From positions 1 to 51,681 of IMG/VR virus record IMGVR_UViG_3300042303_000360: a DNA stretch of 51,681 bases; one strand, written 5' to 3'. Under the pieces are notes generated by a model that saw nothing but the letters and a program-made list of their open reading frames with translations, did not search any database and was not told where the DNA came from. The translations under genes and the position numbers were made by a program. Of the stretch, positions 29,997 through 40,204 are shown one piece after another (position 1 is the stretch's first letter; each line of letters begins with the position of its first letter). The stretch comes from a virus (Duplodnaviria > Caudoviricetes).

Positions 29997-31898
29997 TCAG
30001 TCCCAGAAGCTGCTCCCTGTGCTGGCTGGCCGCTCATCCTCCTGCACCGGTGCAGGCCGCGGCACATCACGCACCACACCGGCGTAGCGCTCCTCATCCC
30101 ACCGCTCATCGCTCCACCGATCCGCACCCACCAGCGCCGCCGCGGCCCGCGCATACACCCTGCAGTCGAGCGCTTCGTTCCGCGGCCTGGTCTTGATCCA
30201 CTCGAACCTGTTGTAGCCCCGCCGGTCGATCGTGTTCGTCAGCCGCTCCGCGCACAGCTGCCGGAACCATTCCTCGCCGTGCTGCGGGAAGTGGCACCAG
30301 CCATGCGGCAGCTCGCCGTCATCCGGCAGCGGCCGCCGCAGCCAGCCATAGAGCTCGCTCTTCGCCGTGCTGCTCCCCACCGGCCACACCTTCACGCCAC
30401 CACGCAGCGCCTTGCCATTACGCAGCACCTCCACCCGCCCCGGTGTGCCGATGATCGCCGTCTGCGTCTCCTGGCCCTTCACCGCAATCACACGGTTGCC
30501 GGCCTGGCCACGCACCCACCGGTAGACCTCCTGGCTCCTGAAGCCCGAGTCGATCGCCGTCATCCGGATCGGCAGCCGCTGCCCGTCGCCGCGGCCGAAC
30601 TCCGAGCGCACGAACTTCGTCAGCTCGCGCCACACATCCGGCTGCGCCGTGTCGCCAGCCAGCACCTGATAGTCGAGGCTCCAGCTCTTCATCCCAGGGC
30701 CCCAGCCCACCACCTCCAGCTCGAGGCGGTCCATCTGCACGTCCACGCCGCAGGTGATGAACACCACGCCGTCGGGCACCGTGCCCAGCTCATAGAGCTC
30801 CCGCCGGTTGTAGAGCGCCTCCCAGTCCGGCGCCTCGCCATCGTCGTTCCAGCACTCCGCCAGCACCGTGTTGGTCCACGGTTTCAGCTCCGCCGGGTTG
30901 TCCTTCGCCTTCTCGTAGCCCACCACCGCATCGGTCCAGCTGAACCACCCCAGCGGCGCATAGAGCGCCGAGCAGTGGTAGCCCTGCACCGTCCGTTCTG
31001 GGAACGACGCCTCCCACCACTCGTCGGTGAAGACCTCGGGGTCATACCACCATGCTTTCGTGTCCTCCTCGATCCCCTCGCCGCATTCCTCGCAGATCAG
31101 CACCGGCGGCATCCGCAGCGTGTTCGGCAAGCCCGAGTCCTTCGGGTCGTACCGGATCCGGTCCCACACGATCCCCTGCCGGTGCTGGCAATGGGGGCAG
31201 GGCAGCAGCAGGTGCTGCTGGTTGCTGTCTTCCCACTTCGCCCAGATTTGGCTCCGGTTCGCGATCGTCGGCGTCGACGTCCACGCCATCTTCTTCCGCA
31301 CGCCGAACGTCCGGGTGCGGGCCGTCACAATCGCCAGCGGGCTTCCTTCTTTATCCACGTCCGCCGGCCAGCGGTCGATCTCATCCCCGCCGAGATACCG
31401 GATTGGCATCGACGCCAGGCCGCTCGCTGCATTCGCTCCGCCGAGGATCAGGAAGCCGCCGGTGAACTCCTTCATCAGCTGCGTGTTGCCGCTGTCCCGC
31501 TCGCGCGGCGCCTTCACCTTCTCCTGCAGGCTCGGGCTTGCCTCGATCATCGGGGCGATGCGCATCTTGCTGTAGCGCTTCGCCAGGTCGATCGTCGGCT
31601 GCACGAACAGCGCCGGCCCCGGCGCGATGTCCATCGTGTAGCCGGTCCAGTTGTTGAGCGCCTCGCTCTTGCCCATCTGGCTCCCGAACACCAGCACCAC
31701 CTCCTGCACCGTGCTGGTGGCCGAAAGGTCATCCATGGCCTTGCGGAGATAGGGGGTCCTGCTCGTTCTCCACGGACCGTGCTCACTCGAGGCCTTCGGG
31801 CTGAGAATCCGCCGCTGGTCCGCCCACTCGCTGACCGTCAGCAGCGGGTCAGGCTCCAGGCCCCGCCGAAACGCGCGCCGGCATTCCTCAATCAGCAT
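29997..31898 (-). CDS. terL: Terminase large subunit, lambda GpA family
   Basis: VSEWAD, GSQMGKSE Walker A, DEID Walker B, STPT, GVDVQ, RNEALDC. Confidence 0.96.
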   Translation of the reverse strand: MLIEECRRAFRRGLEPDPLLTVSEWADQRRILSPKASSEHGPWRTSRTPYLRKAMDDLSATSTVQEVVLVFGSQMGKSEALNNWTGYTMDIAPGPALFVQPTIDLAKRYSKMRIAPMIEASPSLQEKVKAPRERDSGNTQLMKEFTGGFLILGGANAASGLASMPIRYLGGDEIDRWPADVDKEGSPLAIVTARTRTFGVRKKMAWTSTPTIANRSQIWAKWEDSNQQHLLLPCPHCQHRQGIVWDRIRYDPKDSGLPNTLRMPPVLICEECGEGIEEDTKAWWYDPEVFTDEWWEASFPERTVQGYHCSALYAPLGWFSWTDAVVGYEKAKDNPAELKPWTNTVLAECWNDDGEAPDWEALYNRRELYELGTVPDGVVFITCGVDVQMDRLELEVVGWGPGMKSWSLDYQVLAGDTAQPDVWRELTKFVRSEFGRGDGQRLPIRMTAIDSGFRSQEVYRWVRGQAGNRVIAVKGQETQTAIIGTPGRVEVLRNGKALRGGVKVWPVGSSTAKSELYGWLRRPLPDDGELPHGWCHFPQHGEEWFRQLCAERLTNTIDRRGYNRFEWIKTRPRNEALDCRVYARAAAALVGADRWSDERWDEERYAGVVRDVPRPAPVQEDERPASTGSSFWD

Positions 31899-32433
31899 CA
31901 GCCGCCAGTCCCTCCAGCGCCTTCACCAGATGGCGCTCCAGCACCAGCAGCACCTCCGCGCGTTGCTCCGGCGTCAGGCCCCCGGCCGCCCGCGCGATGT
32001 CGCCGATCATCAGCTGCGGCGTCCGCCGCAACGAATCCCGCACCCGCCGGCCTTCCTCGAACCACACCCGCTCCACATCTGACTTCGGCACCAGCTGGCC
32101 CTGGCGCTCCTTCAGGTCGAGCTCCAGCAGCTTCGCCTGATACAGCGTCCGCAGCGCCTGGGCCTGCGCATGGCTCGGTGCCTTCGACAGCACATCCGGC
32201 GCGTTGCCCTGCTGCTGCTCCCGCTCCCGCGCACGTTCCGCCGCTGCGCCACGCTGCTTCGCCGGCGACGTGTTCCGCTGCCACTCCTGGTCCGCAATCT
32301 CCGGGTCGATCTGCCAGCGGCGCTTCCCCGCCTGCACCGCACCCTTCACGATCCGGCCGTCGGCAATCGCCTTCCGCACCGCGCGACCCGTCACGCCGCG
32401 CTGCTCTGCGTACTCGTCTGGGGAGATCAGCAC
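31888..32433 (-). CDS. terS: Terminase small subunit (Nu1-like)
   Basis: N-terminal HTH (EYAEQRGVTGRAVRKAI) plus helical AKLLELDLKERQGQLV; overlaps terL. Confidence 0.8.
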   Translation of the reverse strand: MLISPDEYAEQRGVTGRAVRKAIADGRIVKGAVQAGKRRWQIDPEIADQEWQRNTSPAKQRGAAAERAREREQQQGNAPDVLSKAPSHAQAQALRTLYQAKLLELDLKERQGQLVPKSDVERVWFEEGRRVRDSLRRTPQLMIGDIARAAGGLTPEQRAEVLLVLERHLVKALEGLAADAD

Positions 32434-32705
32434 AGCTCAACGTAGTAGCCCAGATCAGTCAGCTTCCGCGCCACTCCCGGCGGAAACGGGCTCATCAGCT
32501 GAATCGGCGTGTCGCTCGGCGCGATCCCCTTCACCAGCGCAGCCAGCTGGTCGATGAGCATCACCGTGTGGCCGCGGCCCTCCAGCATCTCCTCGACCGT
32601 CACTTCTGGCCCCACCGGCCCGAAGGTGATCCGCATCGGCCAGGCCCTCACATGACCATTCGGGCCCCACTGGCAGCCGTAGGCGATCTGCGCGACCTCA
32701 ATCAT
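32427..32705 (-). CDS. Small protein with weak QueE-like terminal motifs and no radical-SAM cysteines
   Basis: MIEVAQIAYGCQ and LTDLGYYVEL resemble QueE segments by eye; overlaps both neighbours. Confidence 0.5.
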   Translation of the reverse strand: MIEVAQIAYGCQWGPNGHVRAWPMRITFGPVGPEVTVEEMLEGRGHTVMLIDQLAALVKGIAPSDTPIQLMSPFPPGVARKLTDLGYYVELC

Positions 32706-33081
32706 TGAACCCAGCAACGAACGGCCTGATGCAGCTGGCAGGCGCATCCTGCCAGGGCATGAGCACCCGGGTGCCTGGCGTCGCGTTCATCACCGACCAA
32801 CCCAGCGGGCACTGCTGCACCCAGGACCAGATCTGCCCCACCTCCACCCGCAGGTAGCGCGGCGCCCGGTCGAGCACCCCATAGACCAGCATCCCGCCAG
32901 CGCGCGGCCGCTCCGTCACCTCGAGGCCCAGCCGATCGGCCAGGGCCCAGGCCAGTAGCTGCCCGCCGCGGTCCATCCCACACACCGACGTGCACTGCCT
33001 CGAGCACTGCGCCGCGATCACATCTACCGCCGCATCGAAGCCCGCCCAGGTGAGCGTCAGCAGCGGCCCGTCGCTGCTCAT
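32698..33081 (-). CDS. Phosphoribosyltransferase-fold protein, probably degenerate
   Basis: LTWAGFDAAV...GMDRGG..LA.ALADRLGL...VLMPWQD matches the purine PRTase pattern; the VDD.xDTG PRPP loop is absent. Confidence 0.65.
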   Translation of the reverse strand: MSSDGPLLTLTWAGFDAAVDVIAAQCSRQCTSVCGMDRGGQLLAWALADRLGLEVTERPRAGGMLVYGVLDRAPRYLRVEVGQIWSWVQQCPLGWSVMNATPGTRVLMPWQDAPASCIRPFVAGFND

Positions 33082-33596
33082 CCCTTCCTCGGCACCCACG
33101 CCTTGTTCAGCCCGCGGCCGCGGCCCACCTGCGTCGGCATCCCCGCGCGGTTCACCAGCCGCTGCACTTCCTCGCGCTCCATCCCCAGTCGCTTCTGGAT
33201 CGTGCGCTCTGGCACTCCCTCGTCCACCATCCGCCGCACGATGTCCGCCATCCGCAGCACACCATGCGTGCCCCTGGCTCGGTTGTGCCTGATCGTCGAC
33301 ATCATCCGGTGCACCGGATCCAGACGCACCTGCACAGTAGGCACCAGACCACCCGTCAGGCCAGCCACTCGCGGATCCGCGCTCACCGTCCACCGATGGA
33401 AGCCATCGACGATCACGAACTTCCCGTCAGCCTCCGGCAGCGTCACGATTGCCGAGGTCCAGCCGTCCTCGAGGATGCTCACGATCAGCAGCTCCAGCTC
33501 GGGCGGCGCCACGTGGTTCGGGTTGTAGGCGTTGCCCACCAGGCGGTCGCGCGGCACCCACCGCACCTGCGACACCGGCTGCTGCTCCACGCTCAC
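33078..33596 (-). CDS. IbrB/YbdM-like ParB/sulfiredoxin-fold protein
   Basis: NAYNPNHVAPPE.ELL..SILEDGWT, IVDGFHR, STIRHNRARGTH; GTGA overlap. Confidence 0.88.
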   Translation of the reverse strand: MSVEQQPVSQVRWVPRDRLVGNAYNPNHVAPPELELLIVSILEDGWTSAIVTLPEADGKFVIVDGFHRWTVSADPRVAGLTGGLVPTVQVRLDPVHRMMSTIRHNRARGTHGVLRMADIVRRMVDEGVPERTIQKRLGMEREEVQRLVNRAGMPTQVGRGRGLNKAWVPRKG

Positions 33597-34765
33597 GGCT
33601 TCCGCTCCAGCGCCTTCACGTCCTCGAACGTCAGCCCCTTCCGCGCCGCCGCCGTGATCGCCCGCTGCACCAGCTGGCCCTTCTTCCGGCCCTTCAGGTC
33701 GCCGCGGCTCACCATCTGGCACACGTACCGCCAGCTCAGTCCCGTCATCACGTCGTCCTCTTCCTCCGGGATCGGCCGCCGCGTCTTCTTCCGGTGCATG
33801 CGCACCACCTGCGCCACGCTTCGCGCGATCTCCCCGCGCTCCTTCGCTGGGTAGAGCTCCAGCAGGCTCATCGCCCAGTCCTTCCAGCTCATCCCCGCCG
33901 GCGGCTGCTTCAGCTTCGCGCCATAGAGGTCGGTCCTCGCATAGCGCCCCGCCGTGTTCACGCCCTCCACCCGCCGCAGCATTCGGTCCCACAGCTCCGG
34001 CCAGCCCTGCGGATACTTCCACAGCCCACCCAGCGGCTCCTCACCGAACGGTGGCGTCACCCGCTGCACCCCGACACTCGTCCCCATCAGGGCCTGGACG
34101 TCATAGGCCCGGTTGTAGTCCCACCCCTCGCGGGCCGCCGCCACCCACACGTCCTCCGCACGCCAGTCGTAGATCGGCTTGCAGTTGGTGTAGTACCCCT
34201 GGCGCGGCTCCGCGATGTAGTTGTCGCGCTCCTTCTTCGTCACCGTCTGCAGCCGGCGCGGGCTCTCCTGCGCCCTGATCCCCGTCAGGTCCGCCACCGT
34301 CCCGCACTCCGGCCCGAACAGCACCGGGCCCACATCATCGAGCTGCATCCCCATCTCGAACCGCGGCACATCCCGCACCGTCACCACCCGGGCCGGCATC
34401 GGCCGCACCCAGCGATCGCGCGCCGACTCGTCCCAGCAGTTCCACCACGGCTGGCTCCTGGCGCACGCATTCCGGTGCCGGATCGGCAGGCAGCACCACA
34501 GCAGCCGCACATCCTCCCGCCCACGCACCCGCTCCACATACTCCACCGTCTCGGGGTACAACGCCTCCTCGTCCACGAAGTAGACGTCCAGCGGCAGCCG
34601 GCCTCGCTCGCGCGCCACCTGGGCCGTCAGGTTCAGCACCACCGTGCTGTCCTTCCCGCCGCTGAAGCTCACCACCACCCGATCGAACAGGTCGTAGATC
34701 CGCTGCAGCCGCATCAGGGCCGCAGCCATCACGTCCTGCTCCACCTCCACCTTGCGCAGCGTCAT
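33593..34765 (-). CDS. IbrA/YbdN-like PAPS-reductase-family (PP-loop) protein
   Basis: VSFSGGKDS, WCCLP..HRNAC, GIRAQES..R, PIYDWRAEDVW, QRVTPPFGEE. Confidence 0.9.
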   Translation of the reverse strand: MTLRKVEVEQDVMAAALMRLQRIYDLFDRVVVSFSGGKDSTVVLNLTAQVARERGRLPLDVYFVDEEALYPETVEYVERVRGREDVRLLWCCLPIRHRNACARSQPWWNCWDESARDRWVRPMPARVVTVRDVPRFEMGMQLDDVGPVLFGPECGTVADLTGIRAQESPRRLQTVTKKERDNYIAEPRQGYYTNCKPIYDWRAEDVWVAAAREGWDYNRAYDVQALMGTSVGVQRVTPPFGEEPLGGLWKYPQGWPELWDRMLRRVEGVNTAGRYARTDLYGAKLKQPPAGMSWKDWAMSLLELYPAKERGEIARSVAQVVRMHRKKTRRPIPEEEDDVMTGLSWRYVCQMVSRGDLKGRKKGQLVQRAITAAARKGLTFEDVKALERKP

Positions 34766-35493
34766 CGCGTCCGGTGCTCCGCGCGCTCCGGCGCCGCCGC
34801 ACTCACGCCCTCGATGATCGTCCTGGTCAGCATCGGGTGCTGCTCATCCGTCGGGCCGCAGTCCGAGTCCGGGTGCCACGCCACCACAACCATGCTCTCG
34901 TCACGCTCGGTCCTGAACCGGTGCTGGCCGTCCGCATGGATCACGAACACCATCCCCGGCAGCAGCGGCTGGCGGCCCCCCGGCGTCACGCACTGGCCGC
35001 GCCCGCGCAGCACCACACCAATCCGCACGCTTGGGTGCGTGTGCATCGTCTGCTCGGTCCCGCCCGGGAACCACAGCCCGTTCAGGCATGGATCCCCCAG
35101 CTTCACCGGCGGCACCAGCAGCGTGTCCATGCAGCCGTCGATGTAGCGCAGCCGGCCCTGGGCCTCCACCGGCCCGCCCACCGCGAACATCCCGCGCCAT
35201 CCGTGCTGGCTGATCACGATCCCCTCCGGCAGCCCATCCGGATCCCGCACTGGGTAGACCGCCACCTTGCCTGGCACCGACGCATACATGCCCGGCCGCA
35301 GCCGATACCGATCGCCCTCCCACGGCTCCACCCACAGGCCGCCGTGGATGCAGAACACGAACGCCGTCGCGTTCTCCTCGCTGTGCAGCAGCTGCCCGCC
35401 GCACATCACGCCATAGACCCGCGTGCCGCTCTCCTCCAGATCCAGCAGCAGGCCGTTCCGCAGCTTCAGTCCCTCAAACGCTCGATCGAGCAT
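34762..35493 (-). CDS. Cupin-domain protein
   Basis: QTMHTHPSVRIGVVLRGRG and PGMVFVI....HRFRT metal-binding cupin motifs. Confidence 0.85.
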   Translation of the reverse strand: MLDRAFEGLKLRNGLLLDLEESGTRVYGVMCGGQLLHSEENATAFVFCIHGGLWVEPWEGDRYRLRPGMYASVPGKVAVYPVRDPDGLPEGIVISQHGWRGMFAVGGPVEAQGRLRYIDGCMDTLLVPPVKLGDPCLNGLWFPGGTEQTMHTHPSVRIGVVLRGRGQCVTPGGRQPLLPGMVFVIHADGQHRFRTERDESMVVVAWHPDSDCGPTDEQHPMLTRTIIEGVSAAAPERAEHRTR

Positions 35494-36205
35494 CCATCCA
35501 CTCCCGGCAGACCTTCACCAACGCCTCTGGCGTCCCTTCCAGTCCGCTCGCCTCCTTCGCCATCCGCACCGCGCTCAGCACCACCTCTCGGTCATCCCAC
35601 AGCAGGTTCACGCTGAAGACGTGGCGCTCCTCCACCTGACCGCTCTCGGCCGTCGCGTCCGCATCGTCGTCGTCCTCGCCCACAGGCCCCAGGCCCAGGC
35701 CCTCCTGCCGCTCCGGCTCAACCCGCTCAGTCCCGGCAGCCGTCGCCACACCCTCGAACGATCCCAGGTCCAGGTCATCCTGCAGCCGCTGCAGCTCGTC
35801 GTCGCTCCAGCCCAGCGCCTCCAGGTCGAAGTCCTCCACCCGCAGCGCTTCGAGCTCCGCCTGCAGCAGGTCCAGATCCCAGCCCGCGTTCTCCGCCAGC
35901 CGGTTGTCGGCCAGCACATAGGCCCGCCGCTGCTCAGTCGTCAGGTGATCGAGCACCACCACCGGCACCTGGGCCAGGCCGAGACGGCGCGCTGCCTCCA
36001 GCCGACCATGGCCCGCCAGGATCCCGTCCTGCCCGTCGACCAGGATCGGTGCCGTGAAGCCGAACTCCTGGATCGACGCCTGGATCTGCTCCAGCTGGCG
36101 CTCGGAGTGGGTCCGGGCGTTCCGCTCATAGGGCTGCAGCCGCTCCAGCGGCCACAGCTCCAACCGTGACGCCATCGTCGGCGCCTTGCTCTTGCGCTTC
36201 GTCAT
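35474..36205 (-). CDS. ParB N-terminal-domain protein
   Basis: PYERNARTHS, SIQEFGFTAPILVD, ILAGHGRLEAA, LADNRLAENAGWD. Confidence 0.92.
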   Translation of the reverse strand: MTKRKSKAPTMASRLELWPLERLQPYERNARTHSERQLEQIQASIQEFGFTAPILVDGQDGILAGHGRLEAARRLGLAQVPVVVLDHLTTEQRRAYVLADNRLAENAGWDLDLLQAELEALRVEDFDLEALGWSDDELQRLQDDLDLGSFEGVATAAGTERVEPERQEGLGLGPVGEDDDDADATAESGQVEERHVFSVNLLWDDREVVLSAVRMAKEASGLEGTPEALVKVCREWMDARSSV

Positions 36206-36377
36206 GCGGTCATCAGATCACAGAGGGGCCAGATGCGGAACCTGACGGAACATCCTCGGGCATCCTCAGTGATCAGAAAAACCATCAGAACCCGCCAGAA
36301 CCGGCTCGCAATTGGCGCAGCCTATTGAGAACCCCAGTCATTGCAGGGGGTTTGGAACCCAGACCGGAACCTGGCTC

Positions 36378-36406
36378 TAGCGAAAAATCGGGGTGCGCGG
36401 CCCCGT
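36378..36406 (-). other. Predicted lambda-like cos site; putative 12-nt cohesive end GGGCCGCGCACC at 36392-36403
   Basis: Minus strand ACG-GGGCCGCGCACC-CCGAT-TTTTCGCTA versus lambda ACG-GGGCGGCGACCT-CGCGGG-TTTTCGCTA; GpA-type terminase downstream. Confidence 0.7.
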
Positions 36407-36470
36407 GTGCTTTTGGCGCCAGGTGGAGCCAAAAGGGTGGGGGGGTGGGGGGTGGCGTGGGGGGTGGGGC

Positions 36471-37028
36471 TCAGGCCCTGCCGAAGCCCCTGCCCATGGC
36501 CCCCAGGGCGCGCAGGATGCCGTTCTCCAGGGCCTCCTCGATGCGCACCTCTGTGCGTGCCTGAAGGGCTGGAGCCCACTTGCCCCCGGTGAAGATGGCG
36601 TGGATAGACGGGCCCTTGATGGTCTCCAAGGGGTAGCGCTCCTTGCCCCTGCGTTTGAAGGGCAGGCCCTTGGCGATGAAGCCGGACTTCACGACGGTGC
36701 GCTGGCCCCGGTAGATGCTCATGCTGAGGCCCGTGCTGGTCTGCTTGGGCTTGAACTGCATGGCCGTGATGGGCTTGCGGTTGGTGCGGATGATCGCGGT
36801 CTGGCCGCCGTCCCTGAACTGCGGGTTGGAGACGTCCTGCTTGATGCGGCCGGCGGTGAGCGAGTAGCGCTGACCGATCGACTTGGCCAGGGTGGTGCGG
36901 CCTGCCCGGGCAGCGTCACGAACGCCTGAGCGGATGGCCTTGGGGATGTCGTGGGAGGAGAGGCGGGCGAGGGTCTGAGCCAGCTCGCGGTCACCCAGGA
37001 CGCGGGCGTTGATGTCGATGACGGCCAT
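36471..37028 (-). CDS. Lambda gpZ-like minor tail/completion protein
   Basis: Basic 185 aa; FKRRGKERYPLETIKGPSI motif; GGAGG RBS. Confidence 0.7.
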   Translation of the reverse strand: MAVIDINARVLGDRELAQTLARLSSHDIPKAIRSGVRDAARAGRTTLAKSIGQRYSLTAGRIKQDVSNPQFRDGGQTAIIRTNRKPITAMQFKPKQTSTGLSMSIYRGQRTVVKSGFIAKGLPFKRRGKERYPLETIKGPSIHAIFTGGKWAPALQARTEVRIEEALENGILRALGAMGRGFGRA

Positions 37029-37292: not shown

Positions 37293-37376
37293 GAAAGAAA
37301 CGGAAGCAACGAAACAACTATAAGCCTGCAAGGTGGTTTTCGAGCTGACCAACAAGCCAACCAATTCCCTTACGCC

Positions 37377-37669
37377 TCTCACGGTCGTCTCACGGTCAGC
37401 GTGAGACCAAAACCCTTTGCGCTGCAAGGGGTTTGCCCCTCTTCTCACACTCTCACACCCTTTACGGAAATACAGATACATACAAGCAGTCTCACTCCAC
37501 ACACACACACACACACTTAAGGGGGCTCTCTCTCGGCGGTGAGCGTGAGAACGTGAGAGAGCCCCAAACCCCTTGTGTCGCAAGGGATTTGGGGCTCACA
37601 CGTTTCTCACGCTTTGGGGTCTTCTCACGGCGGATCGGCGCTATCGACCGCATCGAGGGGCACTCTCAC
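37377..37669. repeat. Putative replication origin: clustered TCTCAC/GTGAGA iterons, two 25-bp palindromes and an (AC)n tract
   Basis: More than ten CTCAC/GTGAG copies in both orientations right after the primase-helicase gene, as in P4-type origins. Confidence 0.7.
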
Positions 37670-40204
37670 AGCGCGGCTGGTTGCACCGGCTCCCTTGAAG
37701 TAGATCGAGCCTGCTTTGGTCGCGCCGGGCAGTCGCGTGAGGACGGTGGGCCAGCAATTCGACCATGCGGTGTCCCGGAGGATGGCGGCGATCGCCTCGG
37801 CGTTGTTGCTGATGACGACGTAGCCGCCCTCCTCGGCCTTGATGCCGTTGCGCCCCAGGGTGGACTGGGCCAACCGAGCCTCGATGTTGAAGTCGTGTTC
37901 GCGGTGCAGGGCCAGCTCCACCAGCTCACCGATCGAGCGTGTGAGCGTGGTGCGGTCGGCCTCGACGCGGAGCTGGTGCTGGAGGATGCGCTGGATGCAG
38001 CGGCGCTCGTCCGGCACCTCGGTGGCCTGGCTGTAGGGCTCCCAGTTGTTGTCGTCGATCAGCTGCTGGGCCTGCTGCGGCGTGACGATCTGCGAGCTGT
38101 GGAGCGACCATGCGCCAGCCAGCAAGGTGCCGTACTGATCGCCGAGGCGCTGGGAGTCGAAGCGCTCGGCGGCGACGCGGGTGAAGACGCGGATCGAGGC
38201 GCGAATGGTGGGGATGAGGCTGACTGTGCGCGCCTGGAGGCGGCGCCCGATTTCTTCGCTGATGAAGCGATCGAGGTCGCGGTCAAGGGCCTCCCAGTGC
38301 GCCTGGCGCTGCTCTTTGGGGAGCTCTGATGGGTTGCGGAGGGTGAGCTGCGCGAAGCGGCTCTTGTCTGCGCCCTGCTTGAGGCTGGTGGCGATCGAGC
38401 TCATCAGGAACATGGAGCGGATCGTGAAGCGCTGCGTGTCGCCCTCGGGCGTGCCCTTGAGGGTGTGGGCCTTGCTCTCGCTGCTGGCGACCCGGGCGAG
38501 GCCGAGGATGGCTTGCATCCGCTGCTGATCGGTGCGCTCGTTCGACTCGGCCTCGTCGAAGACGACGGGGAGAGCGTCTGCGCGAAGCGCCTGGCGGATG
38601 CCGGGCTCTGTGGTGTTGCCCGCGACGATCAGGCCCATGTCGCCCAGCAGTGGGGTGACGTAGCGATCGAGGATGGCGGACTTGCCGGAGCCTGCTGCAG
38701 CGGTGAGCCAGGTGTGGGGCCGCCATGGCAGCGCGCCGCAGATCGGCGCCAGGGTGACCCAGCCAGCGAGCAGGAGGCCTGATGCTGGCACCTCCCAGTG
38801 GAAGCGCTCGGCGATCTCGGCCAGGACGTAGGCCTCAGCATCGGTGAGCGGGGTGGCGTTTGCGGGGCCCTGCAGTGAGCTGAGGCGCTGGTAGAGGTAG
38901 GTGCTGTCCTTGAGGCGGTCGGTGATGGAGCGATCGGCGCCGTCGACCACCAGGCGATCGCCGAGGTGAAGGACAGAGCGGCCGCCATCCCACCAGGCGC
39001 CGCGGCCGCGGATCCGATCGGGGCTGTAGATGCCGACCCGGGCCTGTTGCTCGAACAGATCTGAGGCTGCAGCAGTCCAGTTGGGGCCCGACTTGCCGGG
39101 GTAGAACGTCTCCCAGTAACCCAGGGGCGCAAGGGCGACGAGGTTGGTGCCGGTGTGCGATGAGCGGGAGAGGCGGAGCACCTGCCCGGTGCGGTGCGGC
39201 TGGTAGTAAAAGGCGTCGTGATCGAAGCCGAGGCAGGTGAAGTAGCCGCCGGCTGAAGGCTTGATCGGCTCCGGGTCAGCGGGTGTGTCTTCGGGCTCCG
39301 GGAGCTCCTGCTGCTCAGCACCGGCCCCGGCGTAGGCATCAGCGCCCCAGGTAGTGAGCACCGCCTCGATGCTGCTGGTGTTGGCGCGGGCGTAGGCGGC
39401 GGCCTCCTGAGGTGTCCAGTCGGCGTCGGCAATGTCCCAGGCCTCTGGGGCGTCGGGCGGGTTGGCGACGACCTTGAGGGTGGTGCCGGCCATGGGAAGC
39501 AGCTTCTCGGCGATGCGCGCCATGGCGGAGCGGCCCACGTCGTCGTTGTCGGGCCAGAGGATCACCTTGCGGCCAGCGAGCGGCGACCAGTCAGCCTTGT
39601 CGACGGCCTTGCAGCCAGAGGGCCAGGTGGTGACGATGACGGCTGGGAACAGCTTCGCGGCGGCGTCGGCTGTCTTCTCGCCCTCCACCACCAGGGCCGG
39701 CGCATCGGGCTTGGCGCGCAGCGCTTCGAGGTTGAGCAGCGGCCGCGGCGATGGTGGCGCCTTCCACCGCCAGGCGGAGCCATCCCAGCTGAGGGGCCTG
39801 ATCTTTTTGCCGGGGAAGCGGGTGACGATGAAGGTGTCGCTGTAGCGCCAGACGTTCTCGGCGCCGCGGGTGGGCGGCTCGACCACGGGGTGCTGCTGCT
39901 GCGGCTCGCGGGCGATGCCGATGTGTTGCTCGATCCGCTGGGCGGCCTCCTTGAACTGCCAACCGGTGCGGCGCATCAGCATGTCCATGCCGTTGCCAGC
40001 ACCACCGCGCTGGTCCTTGCCGCCGCACTGGTTGCAGAACCAGGAGCCGCTGCCGTCCTTGTCATCGAAGCGGTAGCGGTCCTCGCCACCGCACAGTGGG
40101 CAGGGCTGATGCTCATCGGTCAGCTGCTGCGCGCTGAGGCCGGCCAGGCACGCCAGGATTTCAGGCCACCGGCCCCGGGCGGCCTCGTTGATGTCTTTTG
40201 GCAT
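37625..40204 (-). CDS. P4 alpha-like primase-helicase (Zn ribbon + TOPRIM + P-loop)
   Basis: HQPCPLCGGEDRYRFDD..G.G.WFCNQC; VVEGEKTADA; WPDND; AAGSGKS; FDEAE. Confidence 0.92.
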   Translation of the reverse strand: MPKDINEAARGRWPEILACLAGLSAQQLTDEHQPCPLCGGEDRYRFDDKDGSGSWFCNQCGGKDQRGGAGNGMDMLMRRTGWQFKEAAQRIEQHIGIAREPQQQHPVVEPPTRGAENVWRYSDTFIVTRFPGKKIRPLSWDGSAWRWKAPPSPRPLLNLEALRAKPDAPALVVEGEKTADAAAKLFPAVIVTTWPSGCKAVDKADWSPLAGRKVILWPDNDDVGRSAMARIAEKLLPMAGTTLKVVANPPDAPEAWDIADADWTPQEAAAYARANTSSIEAVLTTWGADAYAGAGAEQQELPEPEDTPADPEPIKPSAGGYFTCLGFDHDAFYYQPHRTGQVLRLSRSSHTGTNLVALAPLGYWETFYPGKSGPNWTAAASDLFEQQARVGIYSPDRIRGRGAWWDGGRSVLHLGDRLVVDGADRSITDRLKDSTYLYQRLSSLQGPANATPLTDAEAYVLAEIAERFHWEVPASGLLLAGWVTLAPICGALPWRPHTWLTAAAGSGKSAILDRYVTPLLGDMGLIVAGNTTEPGIRQALRADALPVVFDEAESNERTDQQRMQAILGLARVASSESKAHTLKGTPEGDTQRFTIRSMFLMSSIATSLKQGADKSRFAQLTLRNPSELPKEQRQAHWEALDRDLDRFISEEIGRRLQARTVSLIPTIRASIRVFTRVAAERFDSQRLGDQYGTLLAGAWSLHSSQIVTPQQAQQLIDDNNWEPYSQATEVPDERRCIQRILQHQLRVEADRTTLTRSIGELVELALHREHDFNIEARLAQSTLGRNGIKAEEGGYVVISNNAEAIAAILRDTAWSNCWPTVLTRLPGATKAGSIYFKGAGATSRAVRVPLDAVDSADPP

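Follow-up and report, generated by a model that had tools for sequence, protein, structure and literature searches.

The window analysed here is the whole of IMG/VR record IMGVR_UViG_3300042303_000360, a complete virus (Caudoviricetes); its 51,681 bp carry direct terminal repeats and have a GC content of 59-74%. Directly before its terminase genes the minus strand carries a cassette of six genes (36205 to 32427), the core of which is a four-gene module: a ParB-N protein (ParB1), a two-barrel cupin (bicupin), an IbrA-type PP-loop enzyme and an IbrB-type ParB-fold protein. IbrA-IbrB before a terminase is an already known and annotated phage module that is functionally blank, and the cupin-bearing form is a new variant of this IbrA/IbrB-ParB module, so far found only in uncultivated viruses. 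We propose, at a probability of roughly 40%, that the cassette is a ParB-guided, ATP-dependent DNA modification module acting around packaging. The proposal builds on features that we observed directly, namely the domains, an intact PP-loop, the linkage of the genes and their position before the terminases.

The original prediction described six overlapping genes running into terS-terL, and we recovered all six on the minus strand with stop/start overlaps throughout. Together with the terminase genes they form a row of eight (ParB1, cupin, IbrA, IbrB, small1, small2, terS, terL) in which each stop overlaps the next start without a gap:
36205..35474, minus strand: ParB1 (ParB-N), 243 aa, with PF02195
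35493..34762, minus strand: bicupin, 243 aa, Cupin_2; 20-nt overlap with ParB1
34765..33593, minus strand: IbrA-type PP-loop enzyme, 390 aa, PAPS_reduct and DUF3440; ATGA overlap with the cupin gene
33596..33078, minus strand: IbrB-type ParB-fold protein, 172 aa, GTG start; GTGA overlap with the IbrA gene
33081..32698, minus strand: small1, 127 aa, candidate for a phosphoribosyltransferase (PRTase) fold; ATGA overlap with the IbrB gene
32705..32427, minus strand: small2, a 92-aa orphan alpha/beta protein; 8-nt overlap with small1
32433..31888, minus strand: terS, Nu1-like terminase small subunit (phrog_57, 2e-24); 7-nt overlap with small2
31898..29997, minus strand: terL, lambda gpA-type terminase large subunit (GpA_ATPase 4.8e-76, GpA_nuclease 1.5e-88); 11-nt overlap with terS
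Family scans against Pfam and PHROGs supported the labels first given to the four larger genes (ParB-N, cupin, IbrA and IbrB). The cassette appears to open the operon that runs on into the terminase genes, because the 265-nt non-coding stretch upstream of it carries a terminator-like hairpin after the preceding gene. The statement that no DNA methyltransferase lies elsewhere in the genome stands for three families, as the N6_N4_Mtase, DNA_methylase and MethyltransfD12 models found no match in the complete 51,681-bp record.

Conserved co-occurrence of these genes in relatives, and their link to packaging genes, had been named beforehand as the points on which the prediction could be refuted, and on both it clearly stands. 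With the cupin as sole bait, 296 viral loci and 320 genome loci, bacterial or archaeal, were retrieved; we kept the best 80 of each and called the neighbours of the cupin by tblastn with the window proteins (E<=1e-4). Cupin, IbrA and IbrB share one strand in 79 of the 80 viral loci, where the cupin is accompanied by IbrB in 80/80, by IbrA in 79/80 and by ParB1 in 67/80; the single locus without IbrA (L127) is a 4.3-kb contig cut on the IbrA side. In contrast, the corresponding counts in the genome loci are 4/80, 4/80 and 2/80, and in both surveys all of these neighbours lie on the cupin strand. The order cupin-IbrA-IbrB accounts for 69/80 viral and 4/80 genome loci, and IbrA-IbrB-cupin for 10/80 and 0/80. 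Since the ranges of cupin identity to the window overlap (40-92% in viral loci, 41-67% in genome loci), divergence does not account for the difference between viruses and genomes. All-against-all clustering of the open reading frames (ORFs) in the viral loci also yielded a ParB-fold cluster of 154 members in the 80 loci, about two per locus. A second, shorter gene resembling phosphoadenosine phosphosulfate (PAPS) reductase (phrog_424, ~260 aa) follows the cupin in 10 loci; it was seen in loci of the IbrA-IbrB-cupin order (L146, L150, L152, L155, L156, L159, L160, L162 and others).

Packaging genes come after the module: a gpA-type terL in 29/80 viral loci, an unrelated phrog_9 terL with a phrog_83 terS and an HNH gene in 18/80, and a phrog_12 portal in 11/80. 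The predicted link to packaging therefore recurs with two unrelated terminase families, and it is present as well in a cultured phage, Arthrobacter phage LiSara, whose left end (gp5-gp10) reads ParB - PAPS reductase - ParB - methyltransferase - terS - terL. Compared with LiSara, the cassette has a bicupin inserted between ParB1 and IbrA, and small1 and small2 replace the methyltransferase. Among 50,697 GenBank phage records, 223 hold IbrA homologues (E<=1e-10), including Chlorobiaceae phage CV-1-33 with DUF3440 and ParBc genes at its left end, whereas the cupin found no match in the same records (tblastn, E<=1e-3). The phage homologues of IbrA and IbrB (phrog_2302 and phrog_2159) likewise consist of a PAPS_reduct plus DUF3440 enzyme followed by an overlapping ParB-fold gene.

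Between IbrB and small1 the closest relatives have a variable slot. Two of them, L002 (7708-9791; IbrA 96% identical) and L006 (5388-7258), hold there a third ParB_N gene and a gene for a 417-aa radical S-adenosylmethionine (radical-SAM) protein weakly like the Rv2578c/PA0069 families, and L103 (2777-3913) holds a ParB_N-DUF4417 fusion. These contents mark the slot as a place where couples of ParB domain and enzyme gather.

IbrA scored above the family cut-offs of PF01507 (PAPS_reduct, 60.2 bits against 22.5) and PF11922 (DUF3440, 45.4 against 25), and matched phrog_2302 at 5.1e-87. It carries SFSGGKDST and WCCLPIRHRNAC. The former, at residues 33-41, contains the SGGxDS motif of a PP-loop; it is kept in at least 95% of 72 homologues and is near-invariant in our 35-row alignment A3. 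Cysteines C92 and C101 are kept in at least 95% of the 72 homologues and at least 90% of A3, C91 is not, and across both sets we found no cysteine conserved beyond residue 110 and no three-cysteine cluster. Long forms, searched among proteins of 684-2000 aa, came to two proteins only, with the same two domains and no informative fusion. A predicted complex of IbrA (A3) with the cupin (alignment A1) scored 0.00 against a mark of 0.32, which gives no answer and is not evidence either way. The literature searched gave no function for DUF3440 and yielded no paper linking a cupin to PAPS reductase and ParB. In Escherichia coli, IbrA and IbrB belong to an island of strain ECOR-9, and their K-12 counterparts are YbdN and YbdM.

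ParB1 matched PF02195 (30 bits, cut-off 26.3), phrog_620 (1.7e-56) and, over residues 5-155, phrog_498, a family named 'DNA methyltransferase' (3.6e-52). The PADLOC MTase_II model aligned with it at 1.3e-40, residues 11-143 falling on model positions 6-142 of 436, and at least 80% of 55 homologues retain its GxxR-type motif GHGR (residues 65-68). No methyltransferase domain was found in ParB1, and its C-terminal ~90 aa match no family. By these profile matches ParB1 is an N-terminal ParB protein of CTPase fold, homologous to the ParB part that phage DNA methyltransferases as a rule carry in fusion. Fusions of ParB-CTPase folds to methyltransferases are described as frequent in phages (10.1101/2025.10.10.680097). 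Phage AcaML1, for example, has ParB-type 'DNA modification methylases' near terS: these fusion proteins (Gp24/Gp25) have an N-terminal ParB homologous to ParB1 and also lie upstream of terS, whereas in the cassette ParB1 has no methyltransferase domain and the enzymes, cupin and IbrA, are separate genes. The second ParB-fold protein, IbrB, belongs to phrog_2159 (2.9e-59). Its single sequence gave no Pfam match at E<=0.01, whereas a profile of 33 homologues matches solved ParB structures (4umk at 7.9e-6, 6sdk at 4.2e-5, Noc and ParB at 3-5e-4), and D64, G65, H67 and R68 of its DGxHR motif are invariant. Among 72 ORFs of 118-199 aa in the viral loci, none fuses IbrB to a PRTase-like tail.

The cupin scored 47.5 bits with Cupin_2 (PF07883; cut-off 27.2) and matched no PHROG; 1386 of 1973 candidates of 133-426 aa are homologues at E<=0.001. 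Three histidines, H151, H153 and H191, are invariant in the 22 sequences of A1, the position usually held by Glu in the cupin motif is an invariant Arg157, and further invariant residues include H207, H219, D209, D211, C121, C136, C168 and R114. The conservation is that of a putative 3-His metalloenzyme. Its AlphaFold model is a two-barrel bicupin with a predicted local distance difference test score (pLDDT) of 90.8, nearest to the DUF861/ureidoglycine aminohydrolases (Z 18.0-18.7 over 200-203 residues), level with BacB (17.7) and further bicupins, at 11-16% identity. No function transfers from these rows, because they are tied within 1 Z; the two-barrel fold is common to (S)-ureidoglycine aminohydrolase of DUF861, BacB and the cassette cupin, whose family differs from both in an invariant set of its own (HxH...H, HPDSD and three cysteines).

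In the genome loci such cupins keep other company. An AsnB-like glutamine amidotransferase, another PP-loop adenylating enzyme, stands beside the cupin in 23/80 of them, and in 22/80 there is a protein of 367 aa that belongs to no known family and has a Zn-ribbon at its N-terminus as well as a transmembrane segment; 25/80 have one or the other and 20/80 have both. These neighbourhoods span Acidobacteriota, Planctomycetota, Verrucomicrobiota, Myxococcota and others (L032, L040, L058, L060, L081 among them), so that cupin, AsnB-like protein and 367-aa protein form a conserved gene set in bacteria of at least five phyla. In other loci, nearly all of Bacteroidota (e.g., L015, L031, L074), the cupin is preceded by a 164-aa and a 360-aa protein (17 and 16 of the 80); neither matched Pfam or NCBIfam, and the 360-aa protein has no detectable relationship to the 367-aa one. 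In Maricaulis the cupin adjoins NeuB and a cytidylyltransferase, which may be mere synteny, and in three proteins of 703-805 aa (P0121, P0122, P0123) the whole bicupin is fused at 49-63% identity to Condensation and PP-binding domains (C-T) of nonribosomal peptide synthetases (NRPS). All active-site columns are invariant across these contexts. In a tree of 151 distinct cupins, built after excluding sequences with fewer than 150 aligned residues, ORFs below 170 or above 330 aa and duplicates, contexts are clustered (0/500 shuffles as low) and viral and cellular members interleave: the viral label requires 10 changes, at least four of them forced by well-supported branches. The cupin has thus moved several times between cellular pathways and phage modules. 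Its constant companions activate oxygen or acyl groups and form C-N bonds. We infer that it works on a small molecule rather than on DNA itself, and the earlier suggestion that it makes or tailors a donor fits these contexts, above all the AsnB-like amidotransferases and the NRPS C-T fusions.

The two small proteins fared differently from the core. Both are real genes, since small1 ends in GFDD just before the start of small2 in 16 of 21 distinct homologues and the MIEV start of small2 is kept in 19/19; neither matched any Pfam, PHROG or NCBIfam family. For small1 the label 'PRTase-like' survives as a fold-level lead: its ESM Atlas model resembles clusters auto-named putative phosphoribosyltransferase at TM-scores of 0.70-0.79, all of these rows lying under the tool's own bar for naming a family, and a further likeness is to a portion of a viral ParB_N cluster of 277 aa. 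As a type I enzyme it falls short, with no PF00156 match and a degenerate form of the acidic loop by which type I phosphoribosyltransferases bind phosphoribosyl pyrophosphate (homologues have W-x-D-A/C-T/S at the loop site, the window copy WVQQCP with no acidic residue). For small2 the label 'QueE-like' had to be dropped. The best structural row of its model (pLDDT 94.4) is the N-terminal half of E. coli QueE (6nhl_B; Z 6.1 against a chance bar of 7-8, root-mean-square deviation 3.6, 88 residues); two more rows for QueE reach Z 4.7 and 4.0, and Foldseek gave no match at E<=0.001. The protein has a single conserved cysteine (C11), no CxxxCxxC cluster motif and no Pfam match; Radical_SAM matched nowhere in the genome, and the small2 profile retrieved only 19 representatives at E<=1e-3 from 1.84 billion proteins, all of 45-105 aa and none longer. 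Small1 and small2 were detected in 26/80 viral loci, all with a terL at least 74% identical to that of the window, and by this distribution they are clade-specific add-ons outside the core.

Upstream of ParB1 lies a region with a possible part in the control or targeting of the module:
36471-37028, minus strand: gpZ/tail-completion-like gene (Minor_tail_Z 1.9e-5; a relative's copy matches phrog_27)
36206..36470, minus strand: 265-nt non-coding region with, in order, a C-rich tract, a terminator-like hairpin and GGTTCY repeats
36405..36389, minus strand: the terminator-like hairpin, which follows the gpZ-like gene and separates it from the cassette
36371..36237, minus strand: array of six GGTTCY repeats in ~135 nt just upstream of ParB1, each in the orientation of the coding strand
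The array holds six of the 22 minus-strand GGTTCY sites of the genome, where the mean is 0.11 per 265-nt window, and blocks of the upstream region, including GGGTTC-type ones, are conserved in six relatives. We regard 36206-36470 as a possible site of the operon start, of a binding-site array or of cos; the GGTTCY array could be a binding site of terS (cosB-like) or of a ParB protein (parS-like). Read depth over this region has to be treated with care, as the C-rich low-complexity tract at 36435-36469 (C runs interrupted by A or G) attracts many short contigs of poly-G in all the runs, an artefact that raises the depth there about 100-fold.

From these parts a working order can be sketched for the proposed ParB-guided DNA modification. 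The module would be expressed from the head of the packaging operon. IbrA would use ATP to adenylate a substrate oxygen, either a base carbonyl or a phosphate, or would transfer AMP, like other enzymes of the PP-loop/PAPS-reductase family; IbrB and ParB1 would bring this chemistry to DNA, perhaps by loading at the GGTTCY array, and the cupin would make or tailor the small-molecule group or nucleophile to be installed. The outcome would be virion DNA protected from host restriction or other defence, with this chemistry replacing the methyltransferase of related modules. That DNA is the target is argued by two ParB-fold proteins per locus, by the methyltransferase type of the ParB1 domain (PADLOC MTase_II and phrog_498), by the match of the IbrB profile to ParB/Spo0J/Noc structures, by the methyltransferase or ParB plus radical-SAM genes that fill the slot in relatives, and by the precedent of DndB and DndC together with the absence of matches to the three methyltransferase families. 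Concerning that precedent, two studies describe DndC, SspD and BrxP as DNA phosphorothioation enzymes with a PAPS-reductase domain and DndB as ParB-like (10.1101/2024.06.03.597175; 10.1101/2025.10.10.680097). The system for phage 7-deazaguanine (Dpd: DpdA, ParB-like DpdB, PP-loop QueC, QueE) similarly pairs a ParB-like protein with a PP-loop enzyme, as the cassette does, but in the genome neither TGT/DpdA nor radical SAM was found, and nothing scored above the QueC cut-off.

A narrower version of this reading, which we consider doubtful, is that cupin, IbrA and IbrB, guided by ParB-fold proteins loading at the GGTTCY array, install an undescribed non-methyl mark on DNA. IbrA would then adenylate a base carbonyl or backbone phosphate by a logic like that of TilS, ThiI or DndC, and a cupin-derived nucleophile would displace the AMP; such a mark would be of an amidine, amino-acid or thio type.

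Several observations weigh against a DNA modification module. Among solved structures the IbrA profile comes closest, via the PP-loop region, to CysD and FAD synthase, two nucleotidyl transferases with small-molecule substrates, and the literature searched gave no tested substrate or function for IbrA-type enzymes. ParB/Srx folds can be small-molecule kinases, and in the search with the IbrB profile free serine kinase comes up only at E ~0.56. The cupin family is mostly cellular and not linked to DNA (76/80 genome loci lack IbrAB), and the cupin's own substrate, by the company it keeps, is probably a metabolite. In Streptococcus phage PYS40, IbrA-IbrB adjoins a DNA helicase gene and not a terminase. 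Finally, the sole genetic phenotype tied to IbrAB is reportedly the activation of prophage eib genes, which points to regulation.

These points feed a set of other explanations, which overlap in part. The one that survives best, and that we still hold to be unlikely, is that the three proteins cupin, IbrA and IbrB produce or modify a metabolite (for example an adenylylated or amidated compound, or a derivative of a nucleotide or nucleotide-sugar) for counter-defence, host takeover or as a precursor, with DNA not the direct substrate. It would account for the cellular cupins beside AsnB-like and 367-aa proteins, NeuB and NRPS C-T domains, for active-site columns that stay constant across contexts, for the interleaving of viral and cellular clades and for the likeness of IbrA to CysD and FAD synthase; depositors, moreover, have named phage homologues adenylyltransferase or nucleotidyltransferase. 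It does not sit well with the retention of two ParB-fold genes per locus (154 in 80 loci), with the methyltransferase type of ParB1 and with same-slot neighbours that are DNA-directed.

Quite unlikely, in our estimate, is a regulatory role in which IbrA and IbrB co-activate late or prophage genes, for example as an NTP-gated ParB clamp on the GGTTCY array or through modification of RNA or tRNA, and so raise the output of the structural operon. A homologue in FP_Taranis is annotated 'co-activator of prophage gene expression', and the module heads the late operon, with a terminator-like hairpin and a repeat array in front of it. Such a role leaves the intact PP-loop and the strict conservation of the metalloenzyme unaccounted for, and because the cassette is translationally coupled to terS/terL its proteins would be made with the late proteins, not before them. 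An accessory role in packaging, by which the ParB-fold proteins assist terminase in recognising or cleaving cos/pac, much like HNH proteins in some cos phages, while the enzymes are carried along as passengers, seems to us improbable: the module does lie directly upstream of terS with two terminase families, an HNH gene occupies the slot in the phrog_9 group and a repeat array lies upstream, but the catalytic motifs of IbrA and cupin are left unexplained and the IbrA-IbrB pair of PYS40 does not adjoin the terminase.

The original prediction had also allowed for sulfur chemistry, which found no support here, and DNA phosphorothioation or another insertion of sulfur is in our view very improbable. 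Some architecture is shared: DndBCDE, SspABCD and BrxP combine a PAPS-reductase-fold ATP pyrophosphatase with ParB-like DndB on DNA, as IbrA stands with ParB-fold proteins here; the PADLOC models of DndC, BrxP and SspD reach IbrA with 18-31 bits only (E 3e-8 to 4e-4); and the two conserved cysteines lie in WxCxPxxHRNAC. IbrA scored 20.1 bits with the DndC equivalog TIGR03183 (cut-off 290.4), both PADLOC DndC models and SspD cover little of it past the PP-loop, and it has two conserved cysteines in place of a three-cysteine cluster. Across Pfam, PHROGs, NCBIfam and PADLOC the six cassette proteins gave no match to a DndD/SspC/BrxC-type NTPase, DndE, a desulfurase or DUF4007. A neighbouring P-loop NTPase serves as a criterion for phosphorothioate synthesis in work on BREX type 4 (10.1101/2024.06.03.597175). 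A cassette free of desulfurase could draw on host IscS as its sulfur source; phosphorothioation systems, however, are host defences, whereas the cassette belongs to a late phage operon. Hardly credible is the last alternative, an auxiliary metabolic gene (AMG) in which a CysH-type PAPS reductase aids host sulfur assimilation: the Pfam family name speaks for it, but IbrA stays far below the CysH models (PRK02090 31.9 against 154 bits, TIGR00434 22.7 against 165.1, APS_reductase 18.8 against 235.3), keeps an intact ATP-type PP-loop (SGGKDS), lacks the conserved C-terminal catalytic cysteine that is a CysH feature and has, before terminase, an obligate linkage with a cupin gene and genes of ParB fold. 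With IbrA below both the CysH and the DndC cut-offs, neither a sulfur AMG nor phosphorothioation is supported.

Beyond the cassette, the gpZ-like gene is a solitary gene upstream of the packaging operon, detected by tblastn in 10/80 viral loci; by ORF clustering it forms a nine-locus cluster centred ~1.55 kb upstream of the cupin. Farther upstream, between a primase/helicase-like gene (40204..37625) and an 81-aa ORF, the stretch 37376-37670 contains short repeats of GTGAGA/TCTCAC type and a (GT)n run, besides an imperfect inverted repeat of 42 nt (37401-37442 / 37558-37599), and looks like a replication origin or iteron region. Near-identical or related sequence occurs in Logan contigs of 14 sequencing runs from several studies, all lake or freshwater metagenomes, with no RNA run among them. 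Identical pieces of the cassette were found in contigs of a 2016 run from another study, and a 2023 run holds a colinear cassette variant that is ~94% identical over 31800-35287 and ~97% over 35258-35980. One survey locus, L030, is a 2.6-kb contig of a metagenome-assembled genome titled uncultured Cyanobium sp., with ParB1 at 70% and the start of the cupin at 67% identity, and the terL DNA of the window is similar to that of Synechococcus phage S-CBS1. Taken with the freshwater origin of the runs, these similarities weakly hint at a picocyanobacterial host.

The module bears on how a common viral gene is read. Current virome papers count phage 'PAPS reductase' as a sulfur AMG and draw ecological conclusions from it (PMC13369170; 10.64898/2026.02.18.706556). 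The linkage found here argues against that reading, because IbrA is locked to ParB-fold proteins and, across a large group of uncultivated viruses, to a strictly conserved cupin before the terminase, and fails the CysH and DndC tests. The cassette offers a compact four-gene unit for expression and assay, and the pairing of its cupin with adenylating or amide-forming enzymes (IbrA, AsnB-like proteins, NRPS C-T domains) gives a handle on the chemistry. If the product is a DNA modification not yet described, the few known anti-restriction chemistries of phages would gain another, as would the tools for labelling DNA; should the mark be a non-methyl one, the widely reported viral 'PAPS reductase AMG' would be a DNA-modification enzyme.

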